The translations under genes were made by a program, and so were the position numbers. The notes below the pieces were generated by a model that saw only the letters and a list, made by a program, of their open reading frames with translations, was not told the origin of the DNA and made no database searches. Source: Acidobacteriota bacterium (GTDB lineage Bacteria > Acidobacteriota > UBA890 > WLXD01). Taken from it: a DNA stretch of 64,000 nt. Location: assembly GCA_963666055.2 (NCBI GenBank), contig CAXWPH010000015.1:1568001-1632000 (forward strand), written 5' to 3'. Below, piece after piece: positions 23,977 to 43,003 of this stretch (position 1 is the stretch's first letter; every line of letters begins with the position of its first letter).

Positions 23977-24531
23977 ATGGCAGAATCGGCCGCCGTGAGC
24001 AATACGGCGAAGATCGGTATCGTGACGGTCTCGGATCGAGCCAGCCGCGGTGAGTACGAGGATCGCGGCGGACCGGCTATCCGGAGCTATCTTAGCGAGC
24101 TCCTTACCTCGGAATGGGAGCCGGTGGCACGCCTGATTCCCGATGAGCGGCTGGTGATCGAGAATACGCTGCGCGATCTCTGCGACAACGAGGGGTGTTG
24201 CCTGGTGGTTACCACCGGCGGAACCGGTCCTGCGGCGCGCGACATCACCCCCGAGGCCACCGAGGCGGTGAGCGTCAAGCTCATGCCGGGCTTCGGGGAG
24301 CTCATGCGCACGGTGTCGCTGCGCGCTGTTCCTACGGCGATCCTGTCGCGCCAGACGGCCGGCATCCGGGGAAGTAGCTTGATCCTGAACCTCCCGGGAC
24401 AGCCGAAGGCGATCGCCGAGTGCCTGGATGCGGTGTTTCCGGCGATTCCGTACTGTGTTGACCTGATCGGTGGCCCGTACCTGACGACGGACGCGGCCAG
24501 GCTCGTTGCCTTCCGGCCCAAGAAAAAGTGA
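23977..24531 (+). CDS. mog: Molybdopterin adenylyltransferase
   Basis: IVTVSDRASRG, TTGGTGPAARDITPEAT, MPGFGE, LSRQTAGIRG, NLPGQPKAI; start could instead be GTG 23995. Confidence 0.92.
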   Translation: MAESAAVSNTAKIGIVTVSDRASRGEYEDRGGPAIRSYLSELLTSEWEPVARLIPDERLVIENTLRDLCDNEGCCLVVTTGGTGPAARDITPEATEAVSVKLMPGFGELMRTVSLRAVPTAILSRQTAGIRGSSLILNLPGQPKAIAECLDAVFPAIPYCVDLIGGPYLTTDAARLVAFRPKKK

Positions 24532-29480: not shown

Positions 29481-29516
29481 CGGCCCTTCCACCACGGCCT
29501 GCTAGCGGCCCTTCCA
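29477..29516. repeat. MITE-end remnant within a 15-bp direct repeat
   Basis: CTAGCGGCCCTTCCA at 29477 and 29502; ccaccacggcctgctag 29489-29505 matches the element end. Confidence 0.6.
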
Positions 29517-30287
29517 GTCGGGCTGACGTTTCTCCAAGAACGCCCGGACACCTTCGTCGGCGTCTTCGGAGGTGACGGCGGCGATCACCGCCGGAAGGCG
29601 TTGTGCGGCGGCCTCGGCGACGCTCAGGTGACCGGTTCCCCGCATCACTTGTTTGATCGCTCGTGTCGCCAGCGGCGCGCAGGCGAGGATGTCTGCCACC
29701 CAGCGGTCCACTGCTTCGTCGAGCTGCGCTCGGGCGACCACCTCGTTGACGAGCCCGAGGCGCTTGGCCTCGGTTGCATCGATGCGGCGCCCGGTGAGCA
29801 GAAGGCCCAGGGCGGCTTTCTCGTGGATCTTGCGACTCAGCAGCGTCATTCCGCCGTCCAAGGGTAGCCGTCCAACACGCGGCTCGGGGAACCCGAACTG
29901 AGCGTCGTCACAGGCCACGGCGATATCACATCCGAGTAGCATCTCCATGCCGCCGCCCAGCGCGTAGCCGTTCACGCGAGCCACCACGGGGGTGATCAGC
30001 TGGTCGTTCATTGCCAGGCCGGCAAAGCCACCGGGGCGGGCGCTCGCCAAGTATTCCAGCCCCGTGACCTCCTCGCCCTCAGCGGCGCTCTTGAGGTCGG
30101 CGCCGACGCAGAACGCACGATCGCCAGCTCCGGTCACCACGATGACGCGGACGTCTCGATTGTTCTCGAGCTCGTCCCACAGGGCCCGTAACTCTCGCTC
30201 GGTTGCCTGGTCGATGGCGTTGAGCACCTCGGGACGATCGATGGTCACGCGCGCCACGTGGTCAGCTACCTGCAGCTGAACGCTCAT
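29502..30287 (-). CDS. Enoyl-CoA hydratase/isomerase (crotonase) family
   Basis: RPEVLNAI, AFCVGADL, VNGYALGGGME, PEPRVG, EGVRAFLEKR. Confidence 0.92.
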   Translation of the reverse strand: MSVQLQVADHVARVTIDRPEVLNAIDQATERELRALWDELENNRDVRVIVVTGAGDRAFCVGADLKSAAEGEEVTGLEYLASARPGGFAGLAMNDQLITPVVARVNGYALGGGMEMLLGCDIAVACDDAQFGFPEPRVGRLPLDGGMTLLSRKIHEKAALGLLLTGRRIDATEAKRLGLVNEVVARAQLDEAVDRWVADILACAPLATRAIKQVMRGTGHLSVAEAAAQRLPAVIAAVTSEDADEGVRAFLEKRQPDWKGR

Positions 30288-31471
30288 GCCACGACACCGC
30301 GCGAGCGCAACACGGCGATAGCCTCGGCATCGTAGCCGAGCTCAGCGAGGATGGCGTCGGAGTGCTCGCCGAGTCGCGGCGGCGCTTCGGCACGTCGTGT
30401 GCGCGTCCCGCCTATTACGATGGGGGTGGCCACGGCGCGCAGACTGGACCCGCTCGGATGCGTCATCGCCATCACCATGTCATTGACAGCTGTTTGCTCA
30501 TCGGCCAGAGCCTCACCCAGCGATCGGACCGGAGCGCAAAGCAGATCGTGTTTCTCCAACACCTCGATCCAGTAGGTGGTGCCCTGTTGCGAGAATCTCT
30601 GGCGGAAAATCGCTTGCAGCTCGCTACGGTTCTTGACCATCTGACGCATGGAGTCGAAGCGTGGATCCTGGGACAGGTCTTCGATGCCAAGGGCCATCGA
30701 GATGTCTCGTAGCGGGTGGCGCTTGAAGGCGCCGACCATCACCAGCGCCCCGTCGGTGGTCGCGAACACGCCGGAGAGCGGCATGGCGCCCCAGTTGAGA
30801 TCGTGCTCGCGCATCAGCCACATCGACGCCTCCTGCATCTGCATCGCCAGCATGGCGTCGTAGAGCGAGACTTCGACCTCCTGGCCCTTGCCGCTTTGCT
30901 GCCGTTCCAGCAGCGCCAGAAGAATTCCCTGCACCAGATGCATGCCGGCGGCGTAGTCGGCCAGCGCGGTTGGGTACACGCTGAGCGGCTCATCAGGGTT
31001 CGACCGCCTGGCCATCACGCCGGAGACCGCCTGCGCGAGGATGTCCTGCCCGCCCTTGTGGGCGTTGGGGCCGCTGCGCCCGAAGCCTGTGCCGACGGCG
31101 TAGATGATGCCGGGATTGATCTCCGCCAGCTGCTCGTAACTCAGTCCCATGCGCTCCATTACGCCGGCGCGGAAATTGTTGGCGACGATGTCGGCGTGGC
31201 GCAACAGCTCGATGAGGATCTGGTGACCTTCGGTGGACTTCAGATCGAGTGCCAGGCTGCGCTTGTTGCGGTTGAGGCTGCCGAACACCGGGTTGTCGGG
31301 TCCATCGGGGTCGTCGGGTAGCGCCCACCGCATGAGGTCGCCGCTGCCCGGTCGCTCGATCTTGATGACGTCGGCACCGTAGTCGCCCAGAACCTGCGTG
31401 GCACAGGGGCCGAGCATCGCCTGGGTCAGGTCGACGACCCGCATGCCGCTCAAGGGAAGCGTGCTGCTCAA
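30284..31471 (-). CDS. CaiB/BaiF family (class III) CoA-transferase
   Basis: GADVIKIERP..GD, NRNKRSLALDLK, NFRAGVMERMGL, D in GQDILAQ, PPRLGEH; TTG start overlaps the upstream stop. Confidence 0.92.
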   Translation of the reverse strand: MSSTLPLSGMRVVDLTQAMLGPCATQVLGDYGADVIKIERPGSGDLMRWALPDDPDGPDNPVFGSLNRNKRSLALDLKSTEGHQILIELLRHADIVANNFRAGVMERMGLSYEQLAEINPGIIYAVGTGFGRSGPNAHKGGQDILAQAVSGVMARRSNPDEPLSVYPTALADYAAGMHLVQGILLALLERQQSGKGQEVEVSLYDAMLAMQMQEASMWLMREHDLNWGAMPLSGVFATTDGALVMVGAFKRHPLRDISMALGIEDLSQDPRFDSMRQMVKNRSELQAIFRQRFSQQGTTYWIEVLEKHDLLCAPVRSLGEALADEQTAVNDMVMAMTHPSGSSLRAVATPIVIGGTRTRRAEAPPRLGEHSDAILAELGYDAEAIAVLRSRGVVA

Positions 31472-32832
31472 CTCGATGCCCCCGCCGAAACTCCAGCACG
31501 AAGCGTGGCGCTCGCCGACGGCGTTTCGCCCGGATCGGCGCCCTGCTCGCGAAGGCGGCGCTGCAGCGCCGTCACGTCGATTTCGCGAACCGCCGCCCCG
31601 GACTCGACCGCCATGGCCGCAGCCAATCCGGCGGCCTCTCCCATCGCCATGCACGGTGGGATCTCGCGCGACGTCTTCTGTGCCTCGGGCGTTGCCGAGT
31701 AGTGCCGCCCGGCAACCAGAAGCTGACCGACCCCGCGGGGCAGCAGCGCCCGGTACGGTGTGTAGTAATCACGCCCGCGGGCGATGCTGTCGGCGAAGTG
31801 GACGCGGTTGGCAACGTCGTCGTGGGTCACGACGTACTCGCCCCGGAGCATGCGGGTCTGACGTACCCCGGTCTGCGGCGCCACGTCGACGAGCTGACAG
31901 CGCTCGAAGCCCGGTAGGTGGCCCCGTGCGTGCTCGATCACGGCGTCGATACGCCGGCGTCCCTCGAGGACGGCAGCGGTCAAGTCGTTCACCTTGGCGC
32001 CATCGTATCCGGTGAGGTGTGGACAATTGCACCAAACGACGCCCGGTAGGGGCGTCTTCAGCCACCAGCGGGCCCACGAGCCGCCGAGTATCTTGCGAGC
32101 CTCACGGTCGAGACGCGTGAACTCGTCGTGCTCCTCGAACTCGAACCTCTCTGCCGCAGCCGTATCGACGTCGCCGAGCCTGAACACGGTGGTCAACATG
32201 TATGTACCGCCGACGAAGTCGGCACCGGCGCGCACGGCCACATCGAGATCACCGGTAGCGTCGATCACCACGCCGCCGAGGATCGCCTGTCTACCCTCCT
32301 TGGTGTCGCAGATCACGCCTTCCACCCGTCCGTCATTCATCACCGCAGCCGAAAACCATGAATGTAGGCGCAGACGCACACCAGTTTCGGCGACCATATC
32401 TTCTGAGGCGCGCTTCCACGCTTCGGGGTCGAACGCCACGGCGTAGGTAATGGGTTGCGGACGGTCGCGCGAGTAGTAGTCGTACACGCCCCAACGCGAC
32501 CACTTGCGCCACATCTCGGGGCTCGGTTGACGGTCCTCAGGAGGCGGGTATACCGCTAGGCCCATACGGTCCATGCGGTCGATGACCTCCTGGCAGATGC
32601 CGCGGACCACCACCTCGGCGCCGTCGCACATGTCGTCGAGCACCAGCACCTGGCCCCCGGAGGCCAGGCCGCCAAGATGCGAGTAGCGTTCGAGAAGGGT
32701 GACGCGTGCGCCGCTTCTTGCTGCCGCGACCGCCGCCGCCAGGCCGGCCGGTCCGCCGCCAACGACGACGACGTCACAGCGGTCAACAACCGGCGTGTGC
32801 CGCGCCGGCTCTTCAATGAAATCCGAGGTCAT
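31468..32832 (-). CDS. FAD-dependent oxidoreductase (FAD_oxidored-like)
   Basis: DVVVVGGGPAG, IDATGDLD, GVRQTR, PYRALLP, LLVAGR, CMAMGEAAG. Confidence 0.88.
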   Translation of the reverse strand: MTSDFIEEPARHTPVVDRCDVVVVGGGPAGLAAAVAAARSGARVTLLERYSHLGGLASGGQVLVLDDMCDGAEVVVRGICQEVIDRMDRMGLAVYPPPEDRQPSPEMWRKWSRWGVYDYYSRDRPQPITYAVAFDPEAWKRASEDMVAETGVRLRLHSWFSAAVMNDGRVEGVICDTKEGRQAILGGVVIDATGDLDVAVRAGADFVGGTYMLTTVFRLGDVDTAAAERFEFEEHDEFTRLDREARKILGGSWARWWLKTPLPGVVWCNCPHLTGYDGAKVNDLTAAVLEGRRRIDAVIEHARGHLPGFERCQLVDVAPQTGVRQTRMLRGEYVVTHDDVANRVHFADSIARGRDYYTPYRALLPRGVGQLLVAGRHYSATPEAQKTSREIPPCMAMGEAAGLAAAMAVESGAAVREIDVTALQRRLREQGADPGETPSASATLRAGVSAGASS

Positions 32833-33575
32833 GGCGCCGCGTCCCAGGTAACGATGCGCCGCTCGAGCCAGCTGATGAGGGCGAAGAACGCAACGGAGAA
32901 GGCCGAGGCGAGCACCACCGAAGCGTACAGCAGCGGCGTGTCGAAGTTGTATGTCGCCTGGATGATGAGCGCGCCTAACCCCGCAGTGCTGCCGATCCAT
33001 TCGCCGACGATGGCGCCGATCACCGCTGTCGAGGTGGCGATGCGCAGAGAAGCGAACAGGTAGGGCAACGAATTGGGTAACCGCAACTTGAAGAACACTT
33101 CCCGGTCGCTGGCCGCCAAGACGCGCATTAGCTCCACCGAGCGTGGGTTCACCGACGACAGCCCACGCACCATATTCACCAGTGTCGGGAAGAAGCAGAT
33201 GAGCGCCGCGATAGCGATCTTGGGCTTCATGTCGTTGCCTAGCAGCAGCACCAGGATCGGCGCGATCGCGACGATCGGAATCGTGTTGATCACCACGGCT
33301 ATCGGAAAGAATGCGTCCTGCAGGGACCGTCTTTGGACGAAGGCGATGGCCAGTAGCACCGAGGCGAAGTTGCCCAGCAGGAACCCGGCCACGCTCTCGA
33401 CGGCGGTAGGTATCAGGTTGGCGAACAAAGTGCCCGCATCGCGCCACAATGTCTCTGCAACCGCCAGGGGCGAGGGCACCAGGTAGCTCGGTATCCGGAG
33501 CCACCAAACCGCGGCCGCCCAGGCGGCGAGTAGCGCGGCGGCGCTGAGCAATGGCAACCATCGTGCCGCCCTCAT
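32829..33575 (-). CDS. NitT/TauT family ABC permease
   Basis: VPSP, IPIVAIAP, KLRLPNSLPYLF, GAIVGEW. Confidence 0.9.
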   Translation of the reverse strand: MRAARWLPLLSAAALLAAWAAAVWWLRIPSYLVPSPLAVAETLWRDAGTLFANLIPTAVESVAGFLLGNFASVLLAIAFVQRRSLQDAFFPIAVVINTIPIVAIAPILVLLLGNDMKPKIAIAALICFFPTLVNMVRGLSSVNPRSVELMRVLAASDREVFFKLRLPNSLPYLFASLRIATSTAVIGAIVGEWIGSTAGLGALIIQATYNFDTPLLYASVVLASAFSVAFFALISWLERRIVTWDAAP

Positions 33576-34378
33576 CCGCACTGCTCCAGCAAGGCTCGCA
33601 GCATTGCCGCCTGGTGCACGAACGGTTCGCTCTCCCGCACCGCAAGCCGGCGCGGCTCGGGCAGATCGGTGGTCGCGATGTCGAGAACCCGCCCCGGCCT
33701 GGCGGCGAGCACCAGCACTCGACGTCCCAGGAACAACGCCTCCGAGATACTGTGGGTGACGAACACGATCGTGGTGCCGGTCTTCTGCCAGATCTGCACC
33801 AGCTCTTGGTTGAGGCGATCGCGGGTGATCTCGTCGAGAGCACCGAACGGCTCATCCATCAGCAGGAGCCGGGGACCGGTGACCAGAGCACGCGCGATGG
33901 CGACTCGCTGGCGCATGCCGCCGGAAAGCTCGTGCGGTAGCGCCAACTCCCGATCGGCGAGGCCTACAAGCGTGAGTAGCTGCGACGGTGTCATGGCGTT
34001 GGCCGGCACGGCGCGCCGCGCTCCGACTTGCAGCGGCAGCTCGACGTTCGCCCGGACACTTCGCCATGGCAGCAGCGCATCCTCCTGGAACACGAAGCCG
34101 ATCTCCTTGCGCTCGCGAGCCGCCTTCGGCGGCTGCCCAAGCACTCGAGCGCTGCCGGACGTGGGGGCGACGAGGTCGGCAATGACGCGCAACAGCGTCG
34201 ACTTGCCACAGCCCGAGGGCCCGATCACGGTCAGGAAGTCGCCGGAGTCGATGGTCAACGACACGTCCTGAAGGGCAACGACGGACCCGCGGTCGCTGGT
34301 GAACTCGACGCTCACGTCCTCGAGTTCGACGATCGCCTGGCGTCGCCGCGGTGCGAACAGCCCGCTGTCAGCGTTCAA
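33572..34378 (-). CDS. NitT/TauT family ABC ATP-binding protein
   Basis: GPSGCGKST, LSGGMRQR, LLMDEPFGALD, VTH; TTG start inferred from AGGAG. Confidence 0.9.
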   Translation of the reverse strand: MNADSGLFAPRRRQAIVELEDVSVEFTSDRGSVVALQDVSLTIDSGDFLTVIGPSGCGKSTLLRVIADLVAPTSGSARVLGQPPKAARERKEIGFVFQEDALLPWRSVRANVELPLQVGARRAVPANAMTPSQLLTLVGLADRELALPHELSGGMRQRVAIARALVTGPRLLLMDEPFGALDEITRDRLNQELVQIWQKTGTTIVFVTHSISEALFLGRRVLVLAARPGRVLDIATTDLPEPRRLAVRESEPFVHQAAMLRALLEQCG

Positions 34379-34412
34379 CCTTGCTGCTCTCCTTGCCGCG
34401 ATCGGCTCCGTC

Positions 34413-35453
34413 TCACGCCGGTGCACCAAGGTGTGGGCGTGCGTCGCGGGTGGCGTCGAGGATGGCGCCGGATACCAAATCGTCCAGCCGCGGAGCCCGG
34501 GTGGAGAACTGCCCGAGTCGCGCGTAGGTCTCCAGCTGCTCGCTCCAGGTGTCCGGCGACATGCTGCCCCAGCCAAACTCGGCGGTGCGCTCGTTGAACA
34601 CATAGGGCATCTGGAGGCGGGCGGCGAGAATCTCGTCTTCGGGCCGCAGGATCGGATACTCATCGGTGAGCAACTCGACGGCGCGTTCCGGGTTACCGTG
34701 GACGAAGGCCCAGCCGCGGCCGCTGGCACGCAGGAACGCCGTGAGGACATCGGCGTCCTCGTCCAGCGTCCGGTGGGTAGCGTAGTAGGGCATGGCGTAC
34801 AACCGGATTCCGGCGTCCCAGAGCCGCATGGAGAGCTGGCGCCCACCGAGTGGTCGCAGCGATGCAGCGTTTGTCGCCCAGCCGGTGATCACGTCGACCT
34901 GTCCAGTGGCCAGGGGTACGAGCGAGGAGCCGACGACCTGCACTTCGAGCCGCGACGGGTCGATCTGATGTCGCGCCAAGAGCGCGTTGAGCAATACTCG
35001 GCCAGTGGGCTGAATACCTATCCGCTTGCCAACCAGATCGCCGGGCTCGTACACCGGGTTCTCGGGCAGCGAGAAGTAAGTGTACGGGTGCTCCTGCATT
35101 GCCACCGCGAAGCAACGAATCGGGATACCCTGCGAGACCGCCAGCATGATCGACGGACTAGATGTCGTCTCGCCAACCAGGTAGCGCCCCGAGGCGACGA
35201 TGGCCACGCCGTCGATGTTGGCTCCTCCGGGACGAATCCGGAAAGCGAGACCCTCCTCGTCGAAGAACCCCAGGCGCGCCGCCGCCACCTCGCCGAGTTG
35301 ATTGACCCCCACCAGCCAGCCGAGCTGCATCTCGACGATTCGGCGTCCGTCCGCCGTCGTTCCTGACGTTCCTACGCATGCCCCGAGCCCCAATCCGCCG
35401 ACGGCTGCGGCGCACCCATGCAGGAAAGCGCGCCTTGTCCGAGTGTTGCTCAT
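34413..35453 (-). CDS. ABC substrate-binding protein (NMT1/THI5-like), Tat lipoprotein
   Basis: TRRAFL + LGAC; QLGW, GFFDEEGL, PGG, DLVGKRIG. Confidence 0.85.
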   Translation of the reverse strand: MSNTRTRRAFLHGCAAAVGGLGLGACVGTSGTTADGRRIVEMQLGWLVGVNQLGEVAAARLGFFDEEGLAFRIRPGGANIDGVAIVASGRYLVGETTSSPSIMLAVSQGIPIRCFAVAMQEHPYTYFSLPENPVYEPGDLVGKRIGIQPTGRVLLNALLARHQIDPSRLEVQVVGSSLVPLATGQVDVITGWATNAASLRPLGGRQLSMRLWDAGIRLYAMPYYATHRTLDEDADVLTAFLRASGRGWAFVHGNPERAVELLTDEYPILRPEDEILAARLQMPYVFNERTAEFGWGSMSPDTWSEQLETYARLGQFSTRAPRLDDLVSGAILDATRDARPHLGAPA

Positions 35454-35551: not shown

Positions 35552-37369
35552 TCAGACGGCCGCCGCCTTCTCCTGCGCCGCTTCTTGGAGGCGTGACCGC
35601 AGGGCGTCGAGTTGCTGCGTCAGCGCTTCGGGGAGGCGCTCGCCGAACTGCTCGTAGTGCTGCTCGATCAACGGGATCTCCTGCTGCCAGCCGTCGATGT
35701 CGACGCGCAGCAGTTCCTCGAGATCGCTCCGCGCAAGGTCCATCCCGCTGACGTCCAGGGCGTCGGCAGTGGGCATGCGGCCGACGGGTGTGTCGATGGT
35801 TTCGCTGAGTCCGTCGCAGCGCTCGAACACCCACTTGAGGACACGCGAGTTGTCGCCGAAACCGGGCCAAAGGAAGCGGCGGTCGGCGTCACGGCGGAAC
35901 CAGTTCACGTAGAAGATCTTCGGTAGCTTGGCTGGGTCAGTCTTCGCTCCGAGACGCAGCCAATGGGCGAAGTAATCGCCCATGTGGTAACCGCAGAAGG
36001 GCAACATGGCCATTGGGTCACGGCGTACCTCGCCAACTTGCCCGGCGGCGGCAGCGGTCTTCGCCGACGACATGATCGAGCCCAGGAACGTGCCGTGCTC
36101 CCAATCGAAGGCCTCGGTGACCAATGGGATCACGGTTTCGCGGCGACCACCGAACAGGAAGGCGCTGATCGGCACTCCCGCCGGGTCCTCCCATTCCGGC
36201 GCGATCACCGGGCACTGGTGGGCGGGGGCGGTGAACCGGGCGTTCGGATGTGTCGCCGGCCGACCCGAGTCGGGCGTCCAAGGTCGTCGCAGCCAGTCGA
36301 CAAGCTCGGGGGGCGCTTCAGGCGTCATGCGCTCCCACCACGCGTCGCCGTCCGGGGTGAGGGCGCAGTTCGTGAAGATCGAGTTGCTCGCCAGCGACAG
36401 CATGGCGTTGGGGTTCGATTGGACGCTAGTACCGGGCGCGACGCCGAAGAACCCGGCCTCGGGATTGATCGCGTAAAGTCGCCCATCTTCGCCGAATTTC
36501 ATCCAGGCGATGTCGTCACCGATTGTTTCCACCTTCCAGCCAGGCAGCGTCGGGTTCATCATCGCCAGGTTGGTCTTGCCGCAGGCGCTGGGAAACGCGG
36601 CGGTGATGTATTTCGCGTCACCGGCGGGCGAGGTGAGCTTCAGGATCAGCATGTGCTCGGCGAGCCAACCGTTGTCGCGGGCCTGTACCGAGGCGATGCG
36701 CAGTGCATGGCACTTCTTGCCGAGCAGCGCGTTGCCACCGTAGCCGGAGCCGTACGACATGATCTCGCGGCTCTCGGGGAAGTGGGCGATGTACTTGTTG
36801 TCGGTGTCGCATGGCCAGGGCAGGTCTGGCTGTCGGTCGCTGGTGAGCGGGTAGCCGACGGAGTGCAGCCCGCTCACGAAGCTGTCGTCGTTGCCGAGCA
36901 CCTCGAGCACGGGAGTCCCCACCCGGGCCATGATGTGTAGGTTGCAAACCACATACGGCGAGTCGCTGATCTCGATGCCGATCTTGGAGATGGGGCTGCC
37001 GATCGGTCCCATCGAATAAGGGATCACGTACATCGCGCGTCCGCGCATGCAGCCTTCGTAGAGGCCTCGCAGCGTGGTGCGCATGTCGTCCGGATCGGCC
37101 CAGTTGTTGGTCGGTCCGGCATCTGTTTTCGACTCCGAACAAATGAACGTTTGATCCTCTACGCGCGCCACATCGGCGGGATCCGAGCGGCACAGGAAAC
37201 TGTTCGGGCGTTTGTCCGGATCGAGTCGGATGTACGTACCCGAATCGACCATGAGCTGGCTCAGGCGCTCGTATTCCTCTTGCGAGCCATCACACCAGAC
37301 AACCGTGTCCGGCTCGCACAGCTGTTGGACCTCGTCGACCCAGGCGTTGAGCTTGTCGTTGGTGGCCAC
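35552..37369 (-). CDS. pckG: Phosphoenolpyruvate carboxykinase (GTP)
   Basis: [54 protein letters not shown]. Confidence 0.96.
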
Positions 37370-37637
37370 GCGAAATCCTCGAATTGCGGTGTAGAACTCA
37401 GCAGGTTCCGGCTAGATGCCAGATCGGCATGCCGGAGATACGGTGAATTTAAACAGACAGGAACGCTGCGCGTCGCCCTCGGTCTGCTACTAGTCTGACG
37501 GTTGCAAAAATCTGTCGAGAGGTCGTCGACGACCAGACCTGCCGGCCGCGAGGCTCCCGACCCGCAGCGGTCGTGAGGCAAGCGCATCGTCTGGATGGCA
37601 AACTGCGTGCTCGAACCAGAGCCCCCGGAGCTACTTG

Positions 37638-39179
37638 ATGACCGAGTTGATACAACTGGACTCGCCGCGGCCGCCCAAATGGGCCAAGGTCATCGATCAC
37701 GATGTCTGTATCGGGTGCCACGCTTGCTCGACGGCGTGCAAGTCGGAGAATGCCGTTCCCCTGTCGGTGAATCGCACCTATGTGAAATATGTCGACGTGG
37801 GCGTGTTCCCGAACGCTCACCGAGCATTCCAGGTGACGCGCTGCAATCAGTGCGACAATCCGCCTTGCGCCACCGCTTGCCCGACCTCGGCGATGTACCA
37901 GAGGCCGGACGGCATCGTCGACTTCGACAAATCGATCTGCATCGGCTGCAAGGCGTGTATCGCTGCCTGTCCTTACGACGCTATCTTTATCAACCCGGAG
38001 GACCACGCGGCGGAGAAGTGCAACTTCTGCGCTCACCGACTCGATATCGGCCTGGAGCCGGCCTGTGTCGTCGTGTGTCCCACCGAGGCGATCCTGGTGG
38101 GCGACATGCACGATCCGACGTCGCGTGTCTCGCAGATCGTGCAGCGCGAGCCAGTGTCGGTACGGCGTCCAGAGAAGGAGACGGCGCCGAAGCTGTTTTA
38201 TACGGGTGCCACACAGGTCACACTCGATCCGCTGGCGGCTCAGCGCCCCCCGGGGGGCCTGTTCATGTGGAGCGAGCAGACTTCTGGTGGGCAGCACGTC
38301 GTCTCCGGTCACCCGGATCGCCCCAACAACGCTGCCGCCGCCATGCTGTCGTACGACATCCCGCACCAAATTCCGTGGGACTGGCGGGTGAGCGCCTACA
38401 CGTGGACCAAGGGGATCGCGGCGGGGAGCTATCTGGTAGCCGGGTTGGCGGTCCTGCTGGGCTTCCTCGAGGCTACTCACCCGCTGTGGCAGTGGGTCGC
38501 GCCGCTGGCTGCGATGGTCTTTCTGGCGATCACGGGCGGTTTGCTGATCGGCGACCTGGAGCACCCCAAACGCTTCTACTACATCTTCACGCGGCCGCAG
38601 TGGCGAAGCTGGCTGGTGAAGGGCGCCGTGATCATCACGGCGTACGCGGCTGTGCTAACGGGACATCTGATCTGTAGCCTGCTCGGCGCCTACCAGATCC
38701 AGCTGGGATTGCTGCTTCCGGGGTTGCCCTTGGCAGTGATGACAGCGGTGTACACGGCCTATCTGTTTGCCCAAGCGAAGGGCCGCGACCTGTGGCAGAG
38801 CCCGCTGCTGCCAGCGCACATGGCGGTGCAAGCGATGCTCGCCGGCGCCGCTGTGCTGCTGCTCTCGGCGACATTCGTAGCGATTCCCGCCGCCGCGCGG
38901 TCGATGCTGCTGGGCGTCTTGTGTCTGGCCTGCGGTGCACATCTCGCCATGGTCTGGGGCGAGGTGACGCTCACACACTCCACCGCCCACGCCGGTCTGG
39001 CGATCGAGGAGATGACCCGAGGACGCTACGCCTGGTATTTCCGCATCGGCCTGGTGCTGACATTCGCCGGGCTGCTGGCTCCGTGGTGGATGATCACCTC
39101 CGCGCTGGCGGCGCTGGCCGGCCTCCTGTTGCACGAGCACGCCTACGTTCAGGCGGGCCAGTCCGTGCCGCTCGCATGA
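37638..39179 (+). CDS. Fused 4Fe-4S (PsrB/NrfC-like) + NrfD/PsrC membrane anchor
   Basis: CIGCHACSTAC, CNQCDNPPCATACP, CIGCKACIAACP, KCNFC..CVVVCP, then about 8 TMs with DLEHPKRF. Confidence 0.88.
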   Translation: MTELIQLDSPRPPKWAKVIDHDVCIGCHACSTACKSENAVPLSVNRTYVKYVDVGVFPNAHRAFQVTRCNQCDNPPCATACPTSAMYQRPDGIVDFDKSICIGCKACIAACPYDAIFINPEDHAAEKCNFCAHRLDIGLEPACVVVCPTEAILVGDMHDPTSRVSQIVQREPVSVRRPEKETAPKLFYTGATQVTLDPLAAQRPPGGLFMWSEQTSGGQHVVSGHPDRPNNAAAAMLSYDIPHQIPWDWRVSAYTWTKGIAAGSYLVAGLAVLLGFLEATHPLWQWVAPLAAMVFLAITGGLLIGDLEHPKRFYYIFTRPQWRSWLVKGAVIITAYAAVLTGHLICSLLGAYQIQLGLLLPGLPLAVMTAVYTAYLFAQAKGRDLWQSPLLPAHMAVQAMLAGAAVLLLSATFVAIPAAARSMLLGVLCLACGAHLAMVWGEVTLTHSTAHAGLAIEEMTRGRYAWYFRIGLVLTFAGLLAPWWMITSALAALAGLLLHEHAYVQAGQSVPLA

Positions 39180-39186
39180 GGACACG

Positions 39187-42108
39187 ATGAACGACCTCGA
39201 GAAGCTGAACGAGCGGGTAAGCGCCGCGCGGCGCGAGGTCGAGGGGCGTGGCGAGACCTTTTATCCGGGCCCGAGTCGCATCCATCTGGCCAGCTTTCCG
39301 CCCAAGGAGCGGTGGGACGACTGGGTGGAGCTCGAGTCACGCGCCTGGCCTCGTCGTGAGGAACGTCACTACATGCTGGTACCCACGACCTGCTTCAACT
39401 GCGAATCGGCATGTGGGCTTCTCGCCTACATCGATCGAGACACCATGCAGGTACGAAAGTTCGAGGGCAATCCGGAGCACCCAGGTTCGCGCGGCCGCAA
39501 CTGCGCCAAGGGGCCGGCGACGCTTAACCAGATCACCGATCCCGACCGCATCCTCTACCCACTCAAACGTGTCGGCGCTCGCGGCGAGGGTAAGTGGAAG
39601 CAAGTGTCGTGGGACGAGGCCCTCAACGATATCGCCGGCCGCCTACGCAACACGATCTCGGAGAACCGCCACAACGAGATCATGTATCACGTCGGAAGGC
39701 CGGGTGAGGATGGCTTCACCGAGCGGGTGATTGCGTCGTGGGGGGTCGATGGCTACAACTCCCACACCAACGTGTGCTCCGCCGGCGCGCGCACCGGCTA
39801 CGCGCTGTGGTGCGGAATCGATCGGCCCAGCCCGGATCATGCCAACGCCGACGTGATGTTGTTGGTGTCGGCGCATCTCGAGACGGGCCACTACTTCAAC
39901 CCACACGCCCAGCGCATCACCGAGGCGCGTCGCCGCGGGGCCAAGCTCATCGTCTTCGATACCCGGATGTCGAACACCGCCACCCACGCCGACTATTGGC
40001 TGGCGAGTTACCCGGGATCCGAGGCGGCAGTGTTGCTGGCGATCGCCAACCATCTGATCAAGAACGAACTCTACGATCGCGAGTTCGTGCGTCGCTGGTG
40101 GAACTGGCAAGAGTACATGGTGAAGGAGCGTGCCGATGAGGCCGCTACCTTCGAGTCCTTCGAGACAGCGCTCAGGGGACTCTATGCCGAGTTCACTTTC
40201 GAGTTCGCCGCCCAGGAGTCGGGGCTCGATGCCGACGTTATCGCCGAAGTGGCTGCCGTGGTGGCGGGCGCCGGTACCCGGTTGGCCACCCACAGTTGGC
40301 GCAGTGCCGCCGCCGGCAACGAGGGAGGCTGGCAAGTGGCACGTACGCTGATGCTCCTCAACGCGCTGACCGGATCGGTGGCGACGCCCGGTGGTACCTA
40401 CCCGAACGCCTGGAACAAGTTCGTACCCCGGCCCATCCACGCACCGAGTCATCCCAAGACATGGAACGAGCTCAACTGGCCGCGGCAGTACCCGCTGTCG
40501 ATGTACGAGCTGTCGTTCCTGTTGCCGCACCTGATGCGCGAGCAGAACGGACATCTCGACGTCTACTTCACCCGCGTATATAACCCGGTGTGGACCAATC
40601 CCGACGGCTTTTCGTGGATCGAGATGCTGAGCGACGAGGCCAAGGTGGGCCTCTACGTAGCGCTCACGCCGACCTGGAACGAAACCGCTTACTTCGCCGA
40701 CTACGTGCTGCCGATGGGCCACGGATCGGAGCGTCACGACATTCACTCCTATGAGACCCACGACGCCCAGTGGCTGGGCTTTCGCCAGCCGGTGATGCGC
40801 GCTGCCCGCGAGCGTCTGGGTGAAGTCATCACCGATACCCGGCAGGTCAACCCCGGCGAGGTATGGGAGGAGAACGAGTTCTGGATCGATCTGACTTGGC
40901 GCATCGACCCCGACGGCGATCTCGGCATCCGCTGGTTCGCCGAGTCGAAAGCGCGGCCGGGCGAGAAGCTGACCGTCGACGAGTACTACGGCTACATCTT
41001 CGACAACTCGGTTCCGGGCCTGCCGGAGGCGGCCAAGGCCGAGGGCCTGACGCCGTTGCAGTACATGCGGCGCTACGGTGCCTTCGAGCTATCCGACCAT
41101 GTCGGCCCGCTGTACGAAGAAGAGGTCGCTGACGATCAGCTGGTCGATATCGGCGAGGACTTGTTCGGTCGCGTCTACACTGCGGCGCCCGCCCCGGCGC
41201 CCGACAACCTCGTGCCCACCGGCGTCCCGGACCCTGATGAGGAAGGTCGCCGCCCCGCCGGCGTGCGCGTCGACGGCGTCGTCCGGCGAGGCTTCCCGAC
41301 GCCGAGCGGGCGACTCGAGTTCTATTCATCAACGCTGGCGCAGTGGGGCTGGCCGCAGTTCGCGCTGCCCAACTACATTCGAAGTCACGTGCATCCCGAC
41401 AACCTCGACGACGGACAGGTGCCGTTGATCTCGACGTTCAGGCTGCCGGTGCAGATTCACACGCGCTCGGCCAACGCCAAGTGGCTCGACGAGATCGCCC
41501 ACACGAACCCCCTGTGGATCCACACATCACACGCCGCTGGTCTGGGGCTACGAACCGGGGACCTGGTGCGTGTCGAGACCGAGATCGGCTACTTCGTCGT
41601 CAAGGCCTGGGTTACCGAGGGGATCCGCCCCGGCGTCGTTGCCTGTAGCCACCATATGGGCCGTTGGAAGCTCCACGACGAAGGGCAGCGGCAGTTGATG
41701 GCCACCGTTGCCCTCGACCGTGAGGGCAGCAGTTGGGGCATGAGTCGTCGTCGCGCGGGTGGCCCGTACGAGTCCGACGATCCGGACACCCGGCGCATTT
41801 GGTGGACCGATGTCGGCGTGCACCAGAACCTCACGTTCCCGGTCCATCCGGACCCGGTGTCGGGCATGCACTGCTGGCACCAGGCGGTGCGCGTCATGCC
41901 AGCCAAGCCGGGCGACAGCTACGGCGACATCGCTGTCGATACCGAGCGCTCGCGGCGCGTCCACGAGGAGTGGCTGAAGAAGACCCGGCCGGCGGACGTG
42001 CATTCGCCGGACGGTACTCGGCGCCCGTTCTGGTTGGTGCGGCCGCTCAAGCCCTCACGCGACGTCTACGTGCTACCCGGCCGCGAGCCGGAGGTTGTGC
42101 CGTCGTAG
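39187..42108 (+). CDS. Molybdopterin (DMSO reductase family) oxidoreductase catalytic subunit, Psr/Arr/Ttr-like, no Tat signal
   Basis: CFNCESAC..NCAKG FeS motif, RILYPLKR, SWDEAL, SHTNVC putative Cys ligand, ADYVLP, C-terminal Mo-binding domain. Confidence 0.88.
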   Translation: MNDLEKLNERVSAARREVEGRGETFYPGPSRIHLASFPPKERWDDWVELESRAWPRREERHYMLVPTTCFNCESACGLLAYIDRDTMQVRKFEGNPEHPGSRGRNCAKGPATLNQITDPDRILYPLKRVGARGEGKWKQVSWDEALNDIAGRLRNTISENRHNEIMYHVGRPGEDGFTERVIASWGVDGYNSHTNVCSAGARTGYALWCGIDRPSPDHANADVMLLVSAHLETGHYFNPHAQRITEARRRGAKLIVFDTRMSNTATHADYWLASYPGSEAAVLLAIANHLIKNELYDREFVRRWWNWQEYMVKERADEAATFESFETALRGLYAEFTFEFAAQESGLDADVIAEVAAVVAGAGTRLATHSWRSAAAGNEGGWQVARTLMLLNALTGSVATPGGTYPNAWNKFVPRPIHAPSHPKTWNELNWPRQYPLSMYELSFLLPHLMREQNGHLDVYFTRVYNPVWTNPDGFSWIEMLSDEAKVGLYVALTPTWNETAYFADYVLPMGHGSERHDIHSYETHDAQWLGFRQPVMRAARERLGEVITDTRQVNPGEVWEENEFWIDLTWRIDPDGDLGIRWFAESKARPGEKLTVDEYYGYIFDNSVPGLPEAAKAEGLTPLQYMRRYGAFELSDHVGPLYEEEVADDQLVDIGEDLFGRVYTAAPAPAPDNLVPTGVPDPDEEGRRPAGVRVDGVVRRGFPTPSGRLEFYSSTLAQWGWPQFALPNYIRSHVHPDNLDDGQVPLISTFRLPVQIHTRSANAKWLDEIAHTNPLWIHTSHAAGLGLRTGDLVRVETEIGYFVVKAWVTEGIRPGVVACSHHMGRWKLHDEGQRQLMATVALDREGSSWGMSRRRAGGPYESDDPDTRRIWWTDVGVHQNLTFPVHPDPVSGMHCWHQAVRVMPAKPGDSYGDIAVDTERSRRVHEEWLKKTRPADVHSPDGTRRPFWLVRPLKPSRDVYVLPGREPEVVPS

Positions 42109-42151
42109 CGCCAGGCGTCGGGCGTGTTGGGCACTGGCCGCGAGCTGTCAG

Positions 42152-43003
42152 GTGATCGAGCTGATTCGCGCGTTGGCGGTGCTGGCGGAGCCGCCATCCG
42201 AGGCGACGCCGCAGTTGGCCGAGCTCCTCGACCTGCCGTCTGTCCCCGAGCCGTGGCAGTACACCGATCTGTTCCTCGGACAGATGTACCCCTACGCTTC
42301 GGTGTATCTCGGGCCCGAGGGCATGCTGGGCGGGGAGGCCCGTGATCGCGTCGCCGGGCTTTGGCGCGCCCTGGGCGAGGAGCCTCCGTCTGAGCCGGAC
42401 CATCTGAGCGTCCTGCTCGGCCTGTACGCTCGCTTGATGGAGCTGGAGTCGGCAGCGACAGAGCGTCAGGCGCTGGCCTGGCAGCGCGCTCGCGCGGCAC
42501 TCCTCTGGGAGCATCTCCTGAGCTGGCAGGGAGCCTGGCTCCGCAAGCTGGAGCTGGTCGCTCCGCCCGCCTATGGTGCGTGGGGACGCGTCTTGGCTCG
42601 CACACTCCAGCACGAGGCGTCGGGGCTGACGCTGCCCGACGAGCTCCCGGTTCACCTGGTGCAGGCTCCACTACTTCCCGAGCCGCAGCAAGAAGGCGGC
42701 GAGGCGTTTCTCGAGGGCCTGCTGACGCCGGTGCGGTGCGGCTTCATCCTGACGCGCACCGACCTGGAGAACGCCGCCGCCGAGCTGCAGCTCGGGCTGC
42801 GCGCCGGCGAGCGTCGCTACGCACTGCGCGCCCTGATCGGACAGGATCGCGCCGCCACCCTGGGCTGGCTTGCCGAGTACGCGCGCCAGACGGCCGGGCA
42901 GAGCCCCGACAACCCTACCGCTACCAGCCCGATCGACGCGTTTTGGCGACAGAGAGCGCTCGCGTCGGCGACGCGCCTGGGGCAGGCGGCAACCTCAGCG
43001 TGA
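42152..43003 (+). CDS. TorD/DmsD family maturation chaperone
   Basis: YTDLF, PYASVY, EPDHL, EHLLSW. Confidence 0.85.
   Translation: MIELIRALAVLAEPPSEATPQLAELLDLPSVPEPWQYTDLFLGQMYPYASVYLGPEGMLGGEARDRVAGLWRALGEEPPSEPDHLSVLLGLYARLMELESAATERQALAWQRARAALLWEHLLSWQGAWLRKLELVAPPAYGAWGRVLARTLQHEASGLTLPDELPVHLVQAPLLPEPQQEGGEAFLEGLLTPVRCGFILTRTDLENAAAELQLGLRAGERRYALRALIGQDRAATLGWLAEYARQTAGQSPDNPTATSPIDAFWRQRALASATRLGQAATSA

Follow-up and report, generated by a model that had tools for sequence, protein, structure and literature searches.

PsrABC/PhsABC, TtrBCA, and ArrAB (Thermus 2vpw; Shewanella ArrAB 6cz7) are exported by twin-arginine translocation (Tat) and face the periplasm. A cytoplasmic location was described by Wright et al. 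in 2013 for a group in which psrB and psrC are fused, the gene order is psrBCA, and Tat signals are absent (PMC3906813). The group spans Marine Group A (SAR406), green sulfur bacteria (PSRLC3), Caldilinea, and Haladaptatus, and the complex of green sulfur bacteria has been proposed to oxidize Dsr-derived sulfite, as reported in the same paper. PSRLC3 is elsewhere called an alternative sulfite-oxidizing system (PMC6338057). SoeA and the bacterial SreA are cytoplasmic as well, bear a Cys ligand, and form a lineage of their own (PMC10100899), and an inverted NrfD anchor has been proposed for SoeC (PMC8076601). In this study, we compare these systems with an operon in a 64,000-nucleotide stretch of DNA from an Acidobacteriota bacterium (contig CAXWPH010000015.1), the whole of which is called the window. 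The operon encodes a fused electron-transfer and membrane-anchor protein (BC), a catalytic molybdenum (Mo) subunit (A), and a chaperone (D; Table 1).

Table 1. Coordinates of the operon and of its relevant elements within the window
Feature	Position	Strand	Description and basis
BC fusion, 513 aa	37638..39179	+	electron-transfer domain joined to NrfD/PsrC-type membrane anchor; without signal peptide
4x[4Fe-4S] domain, residues 14-195, PsrB/NrfC/TtrB-like	37677..38222	+	16 Cys, four motifs
Eight-helix NrfD anchor, residues 243-508, predicted N-in	38364..39161	+	PF03916, AlphaFold helices, Lys/Arg bias
E500, Glu where the NrfD family has the helix-8 "gate" Arg	39135..39137	+	anchor alignment
A, catalytic Mo/W-bisPGD subunit, 973 aa, FS0 cluster, without Tat signal	39187..42108	+	open reading frame, Pfam, structure model
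C197, predicted Mo ligand in SHTNVCS; invariant R171 and H193 close in sequence	39775..39777	+	alignment to Thermus PsrA Cys173
D, TorD/DmsD/NarJ-family maturation chaperone, 283 aa	42152..43003	+	PF02613 over cut-off

The window copy is real, intact, and typical of its widespread family, for which both the layout and the likely orientation have been published before; the sister-group evidence for an inversion of the anchor and for the swap of a gate residue are additions of the present analysis. Judged from sequence, we favor a cytoplasmic sulfite:quinone oxidoreductase of the Tat-less, two-subunit psrBC–psrA (PSRLC3-like) kind, a reading to which we give an even chance.

The operon comprises the parts of the complex iron–sulfur molybdoenzyme/dimethyl sulfoxide reductase (MopB) superfamily: a Mo-bis(pyranopterin guanine dinucleotide) (bisPGD) subunit with an FS0 cluster, a four-cluster subunit, a membrane anchor, and a dedicated chaperone. 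Open reading frames (ORFs) and domains are as the original prediction had read them, that is, an iron–sulfur (FeS)/NrfD fusion with four clusters and eight helices, a Mo subunit, and a TorD-like chaperone. In BC, the ferredoxin motifs lie between residues 24 and 147, all 16 Cys are invariant in 69 rows of the alignment, and the Pfam models Fer4_11 and NrfD score over their cut-offs. The FeS domain finds its best PDB match in Thermus PsrB (2vpw_B, E 7.7e-51). The AlphaFold model of BC displays eight long helices after residue 249 and a poorly ordered linker (residues ~203–243), and matches both Thermus PsrB and PsrC (2vpw_C, target TM-score 0.80); the eight helices superimpose on PsrC. No other NrfD match was found in the source genome. 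Subunit A bears the Pfam domains PF04879, PF00384, and PF01568, and its FS0 Cys are C69, C72, C76, and C106; together with BC, the Cys suffice for five FeS clusters. D belongs to the TorD family as predicted; its start, however, is most likely the GTG at 42152 and not 42095, since alignments with homologues begin only near residue 20 of that longer frame. None of the curated NCBIfam families scored over cut-off for A, BC, or D.

With the group of Wright et al., the locus shares the B–C gene fusion, the position of BC upstream of A, the lack of a Tat signal on A, and an inferred cytoplasmic location, as well as the spread over many phyla—including Chloroflexi and haloarchaea—and Sulfurimonas proteins as relatives. 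By its architecture—fusion, gene order, and predicted Tat-less cytoplasmic orientation—it is a putative psrBC–psrA/PSRLC3-like system. It differs in that the window copy belongs to a usually TorD-carrying subgroup and has no adjoining dsr cluster. Among the matches listed, there is no Chlorobi- or Marinimicrobia-named protein; fused relatives occur in Chloroflexota and haloarchaea, and PsrA of Sulfurimonas gotlandica GD1 is found as sister. Wright et al. give the order psrACB for GD1 (PMC3906813), and the GD1 protein there may be another paralogue. The novelty implied by the original prediction is not supported: the Tat-less psrBC–psrA layout and the inverted anchor of SoeC were described or proposed before, and the layout is normal within the family.

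This family is large. A protein search returned at least 7999 candidates, the best 120 of them at 74 to 93% identity, and at least 708 stretches of GTDB genomes encode a relative. Our locus sample consists of 80 of these stretches (66–93% identical), in which Actinomycetota (29), Gemmatimonadota (25), Acidobacteriota (10), and Binatota (6) predominate. A BC homologue is present in 72 of the 80 loci, fused at full length in 68, and a D homologue in 53; in six of the eight loci without BC, less than 1 kb separates A from the start of the contig. The two others (L002 and L063) have 6 kb upstream of the A homologue and no BC match, and might reflect frameshifts, a different order of the genes, or an A that stands alone. 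An apparent three-way BC–A fusion in L048 was dismissed as a frameshift artefact. A match at E <= 1e-50 is present in 28 of the 41 kin-sample genomes. Fused copies are found in named organisms such as Thermomicrobium roseum, Rhodococcus jostii RHA1, and haloarchaea, and the subgroup of the window copy (Acidobacteriota, Gemmatimonadota, Actinomycetota, and Binatota; 66–93% identical) usually carries a TorD-like gene. Some full-length relatives (P0122, P0125, P0130, P0148, P0171, P0213, P0221, and P0225) lack the Cys ligand motif, and some of these the cofactor-binding motifs too; they are possibly cofactor-less or Gly/Leu-substituted paralogues. In a genome of the same genus (G002:C9:908592–909909), a second, partial and frameshifted A copy, 92 to 98% identical, lies ~37 kb from the intact gene.

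The orientation of the complex can be approached from its N-termini and its anchor. A regex and hydropathy screen detected no Tat signal on A or BC, in agreement with the original prediction, and no alternative upstream start supplies one: for A there is no in-frame start before the stop at 39091, and for BC there are only a TTG at 37635 and two CTG, whose extension contains a run of Arg and lacks a hydrophobic segment. Across the family, none of 76 A and none of 70 BC N-termini were flagged, as opposed to 37 of 38 A proteins of the Tat-bearing sister group described below; the 38th is frameshifted, with the Tat motif visible in another frame. It is very improbable that the complex faces the periplasm after all by a cryptic Tat signal or piggy-back export. 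A twin arginine near the start of A (R15–R16), the retained TorD-family chaperone, and the presence of TatC—and thus of a Tat route—in the source genome would fit such an export. However, no hydrophobic region follows the arginines, R16 is unconserved (Ala, Glu, and Gln are commonest in 74 rows), all 146 family N-termini went unflagged, and the neighbor clusters contain no conserved Tat-bearing partner. In addition, B is covalently joined to the first helix of the anchor, whose charge bias is 9 versus 0. Without Tat export, an FeS domain that receives its clusters in the cytoplasm cannot reach the other side of the membrane, so that the fusion itself demands the predicted N-in topology.

The charge bias itself was part of the original prediction; by our count, loops of the window anchor carry nine Lys/Arg on the FeS side and none on the opposite side. 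We extended this count to loci with a near-complete anchor and an A match. All 81 fused anchors are richer in Lys/Arg on the FeS side (mean 9.5 versus 1.3), and the T. roseum anchor—dropped by the filter and scored separately—shows 11 versus 2. All 36 unfused anchors of the sister group show the reverse (FeS side 3.8 versus opposite side 6.7), and so do the controls NrfD of Escherichia coli (5 versus 8) and TtrC (4 versus 8); the sister set consists mostly of related sequences, so that its 36 anchors are not 36 independent cases. The opposite bias of fused and Tat-bearing unfused anchors suggests that the anchor has been flipped. The bias of the fused set is stable under every one of the ten helix-boundary settings. 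For the unfused set and the known controls, it persists only with boundaries placed at or within the helix ends and is lost with wider limits, as short loops are swallowed: one residue wider, 24 of 36 anchors keep it, and with a widening by two or three residues, 33 to 35 of 36 flip, which speaks against the flip. Taken with the sister group as control, these data support the earlier view of a quinone-linked complex with an inverted anchor, and we predict from sequence that it faces the cytoplasm with its anchor N-in.

In a search of 50% representatives, more distant relatives appeared that start with twin-arginine signals. Among these, the sister group has separate B and C genes before A and 37 to 40% identity, and one cluster includes the "Polysulfide reductase, subunit A" of S. 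gotlandica GD1 (EHP29240.1; 39% identical over 907 columns). These Sulfurimonas/Sulfurovum complexes share with the fused family the gene order B–C–A and the motifs GRP and SHTN(I/V)CS; they differ by the Tat signal on A, the separate B and C, the opposite Lys/Arg bias, a Lys at the gate position, and Asn in place of Y254. For Campylobacterota Psr homologues, the cited passages give transcript data only (PMC10045233, PMC4584964). Trees were calculated with FastTree and, for 30 rows under LG+G4, with IQ-TREE; TtrA forms a long branch. The fused Tat-less rows form one group in both (FastTree, 22 rows, support 99; IQ-TREE, 11 rows, 93/98, short of starred), the sister is joined to it at 100/100, and Tat-bearing Ttr-, Arr-, and Psr-like rows fall outside. 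With Tat-bearing proteins both adjoining and outside, the loss of export and the inversion likely mark a derived state. The lineage would then have arisen from a periplasm-facing B–C–A ancestor, likely via loss of the signal, inversion of the anchor, and fusion of B and C.

Within the anchor, the candidate quinone-site residues Y254, D306, S324, Y372, and T373 lie at helix ends, all of them on the FeS side. They align with Y21, H74, S92, Y162, and T163 of E. coli NrfD and also with residues of TtrC, as listed for both in Table 2 of Calisto and Pereira (PMC8076601). Helix 8 deviates: E500 aligns with R306 of E. coli NrfD and R280 of TtrC, and 78 of the 81 fused anchors have Glu at this position, whereas all 36 unfused ones carry Lys or Arg. 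A role of this Arg as proton gate is a hypothesis of the same authors, and the Arg is retained even in SoeC (Arg297) and FqoC (Arg293) (PMC8076601). The literature passages covered do not mention an Arg-to-Glu swap, although no search was aimed at it. Such a swap would fit an altered or lost proton path. We tentatively regard the family and its periplasm-facing Sulfurimonas sister as a naturally occurring pair of homologues with opposite membrane orientations, with the proposed gate changed from Arg/Lys to Glu.

By analogy, the complex works most likely like SoeABC of Allochromatium vinosum and Aquifex aeolicus. Both are predicted to combine a cytoplasm-facing Mo-bisPGD/FeS/NrfD-like architecture, a Cys ligand, an inverted eight-helix anchor, and a quinone site on the N-side, with the same proposed reaction. 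SoeABC, however, consists of three separate subunits and retains Arg297 in SoeC, whereas the window encodes a fusion with E500. By these subunit and gate-residue tests, the family is probably separate from SoeABC; no SoeA turned up among plasmids and DmsC-family loci, and our trees contain none. SoeC is of the DmsC type, the window anchor matches PF03916, and PF04976 has no match in the source genome. An independent inversion is suggested by the nearest relatives being Tat-bearing Sulfurimonas-type proteins. The family might constitute a second sulfite:quinone oxidoreductase with an inversion of its own, and the main finish of the intracellular sulfur-to-sulfate route in soil and marine heterotrophs without SoeABC, Sox, and Apr; we regard this as possible but on the doubtful side. 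DmsC-family matches were also observed in ORFs of 541 to 556 aa from one family of the phylum (G106:C6:633450, G289:C1:272820, G262:C2:79968, and G226:C6:46092), one of them beside a Mo-enzyme gene; these possibly represent a second, unrelated FeS–anchor fusion.

In the catalytic subunit, C197 of the SHTNVC motif aligns with Cys173 of Thermus PsrA, in line with the resemblance to the Cys-ligand motif of the Psr/Ttr/Arr clade noted in the original prediction. The FS0 Cys, C197, R171, and H193 are invariant in 74 of 74 rows. PsrABC/PhsABC, TtrBCA, and ArrAB resemble the complex in the folds of the three parts, the Cys ligand, and the quinone-site residues, but form separate clades, and A falls far under their family cut-offs. 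The structure model of A matches ArrA (6cz7, top), acetylene hydratase, and PsrA at only 17 to 22% identity. An Arg/His oxyanion site like that of ArrA, suggested by a single Arr-like row, is not used as evidence.

The structural match to ArrA would suit a cytoplasm-facing enzyme for another oxyanion or an organic substrate—thiosulfate, tetrathionate, arsenite/arsenate, or an S- or N-oxide. The sulfur neighbors discussed below would then mark only part of the family, from which the window copy may have diverged; its genus indeed lacks such neighbors, and the nearest outgroups are Ttr- or Arr-like, with one in an arsenic island of Azoarcus KH32C. We consider this unlikely. A scores 96 bits with the ArrA model (cut-off 1600) and 104 bits with the TtrA model (cut-off 1750), arsenic-resistance families are absent among the frequent neighbor clusters of the 80 loci, and the candidate active-site residues are the same in copies with and without sulfur neighbors (74 rows), which argues for one substrate. 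Several databases name relatives "formate dehydrogenase," and FqoABC of Calisto and Pereira is an uncharacterized NrfD complex of Actinobacteria, Chlorobi, and Chloroflexi (PMC8076601), so that a formate:quinone oxidoreductase has to be weighed too. We deem it highly unlikely: formate dehydrogenase models score far under cut-off, the residue after the Cys ligand is Ser198 in 74 of 74 rows where formate dehydrogenase (9vap_A) has His, and the anchor bears E500 in place of the Arg293 retained in FqoC.

The preferred sulfite-oxidizing reading draws on the surroundings of relatives. Within ~6 kb of the 80 GTDB relatives, neighbors were found by clustering and Pfam and recounted by tblastn: metallo-β-lactamase (MBL)–rhodanese proteins in 35, a SulP permease in 31, DsrE2 in 18, TusA in 15, and proteins like sulfide:quinone oxidoreductase (SQR) in 5. 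At least one sulfur-handling neighbor is present at 53 of 80 loci under six phylum labels, versus 45 of 5508 15-kb windows (0.8%) of the source genome. In R. jostii RHA1, the order dsrE–tusA–BC–A is embedded amid three MBL genes. Persulfide dioxygenase makes sulfite in the cytoplasm, and genes of the MBL–rhodanese, TusA, and DsrE2 types move and oxidize persulfide sulfur, giving cytoplasmic sulfite. Since these neighbors yield cytoplasmic sulfite and a sulfate-family permease adjoins, a sulfite-to-sulfate step fits. The substrate, called unknown in the original prediction, formally remains so, but the neighborhoods of relatives point to intracellular sulfur oxyanions. At the 37 loci of the sister group, the sulfur-neighbor queries, which are distant from those loci, found no match.

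The same neighborhoods bear on the substrate alternative that we rank next, as a possible though clearly less probable one: an enzyme of the same cytoplasm-facing build that reduces or oxidizes sulfane sulfur—polysulfide, glutathione or mycothiol persulfide, or TusA/DsrE-bound persulfide—with quinol as partner, comparable to the sulfur reductases that have been proposed to act in the cytoplasm of Aquifex and Campylobacterota. TusA, DsrE2, and rhodanese are persulfide carriers, and with SQR at only 5 of 80 loci the enzyme could replace it. Thermus PsrA is the best PDB sequence match of A, the sister is annotated PsrA, Wright et al. name their group Psr (PMC3906813), and cytoplasmic Psr-like sulfur reduction has been proposed in Sulfurovum and Sulfurimonas (PMC10045233). 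On the other side, A reaches 193.9 bits with the PhsA model (cut-off 694), Psr-like rows form a separate clade, and the SulP permease adjoining in 31 of 80 loci fits an oxyanion as product or substrate. Electron transfer from menaquinol to polysulfide is moreover endergonic and needs a proton path (PMC8076601), and the gate Arg is lost here.

Several observations weigh against sulfite oxidation. The sulfur neighbors would equally suit a persulfide or polysulfide substrate, and the sister group is annotated "polysulfide reductase." The neighbor queries stem from RHA1 or from the very loci counted, and related loci are not independent cases. The MBL–rhodanese proteins appear persulfide dioxygenase-like, a label of our own, as their NCBIfam GloB/Blh matches stay under cut-off. 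The window copy itself has no sulfur-handling neighbor, and none of the 26 genes scanned out of 102 called at eight kin loci is sulfur-related. By tblastn with the queries used, the source genome has no SulP, DsrE2, or SQR-like match, and its best MBL–rhodanese match is split over two ORFs. In the literature searched, which left most subscription papers outside, we found no assay of a fused psrBC–psrA enzyme. Elsewhere in the source genome are MBL/rhodanese genes, TusA, Sat with adenosine 5'-phosphosulfate kinase, and TauD, with TauE doubtful. At L166:8119–9522 (G000:C7), MBL–rhodanese ORFs are separated by a 102-bp gap and might be two genes or one broken gene.

If the enzyme does oxidize sulfite, sulfite made inside the cell would likely be converted to sulfate with electrons passed to the quinone pool. 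At the Mo site, the reaction would read SO3(2-) + H2O -> SO4(2-), and electrons would run from FS0 over the four B clusters to a quinone site on the cytoplasmic face. D would likely serve cofactor insertion, as NarJ does for the Tat-less NarG. As substrate and quinone sites share one side of the membrane, there would be no redox loop; the step is likely electroneutral, with energy conserved downstream. Modules with both sites on one side were classed as electroneutral, yet the same-side QrcABCD proved electrogenic (PMC6303296), and the electroneutral reading is for this reason an inference only. For the reversed bioenergetic sidedness in the original prediction, support extends to the topology only.

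With at least 708 GTDB stretches and 28 of 41 kin-sample genomes, this family is very common; it is also highly conserved between phyla, and relatives are often mislabeled "formate dehydrogenase" or "polysulfide reductase." Should it oxidize sulfite, many soil and sea heterotrophs would carry out a step that has so far gone uncounted in the sulfur cycle, and metagenomic "psr" annotations would suggest the wrong direction. With its swapped gate residue, the flipped anchor also offers a clean comparison for NrfD bioenergetics and a test case for proton movement. The window copy itself is ordinary for the family.

The operon is flanked by genes for phosphoenolpyruvate (PEP) carboxykinase and an M28 peptidase. 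The distance of ~13 kb to mog is correct as given originally (23977–24531, NCBIfam over cut-off) and says nothing special. A functional link to mog, PEP carboxykinase, or the ABC transporter/CoA-transferase cluster at 29.5 to 35.3 kb is unsupported beyond close kin. No sigma-70-like promoter was found in 37300 to 37700, which is uninformative. In the kin G007 and G006 (L171:12855–13577; L172:12678–13424), a gene of 241 to 249 aa lies between PEP carboxykinase and BC, where the window has a gap of only 268 bp; it is without Pfam or NCBIfam match, and one copy has a signal-peptide-like start. The cluster at 29505 to 35330 on the minus strand encodes an ATP-binding cassette (ABC) transporter of the NMT1/THI5 (NitT/TauT) type, an FAD oxidoreductase, a class III coenzyme A (CoA)-transferase, and an enoyl-CoA hydratase; it points to uptake and catabolism of a substrate not assigned here and is kept in the same-genus genome G002. 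Finally, on plasmid pAZKH of Azoarcus sp. KH32C (L085, 6245–11405), a Tat-bearing B–C–A–TorD operon adjoins ars genes and a sensor system of the PhnD type. Its catalytic subunit is 33% identical to A and under all NCBIfam cut-offs, and the operon likely encodes an arsenic or antimony oxyanion enzyme.

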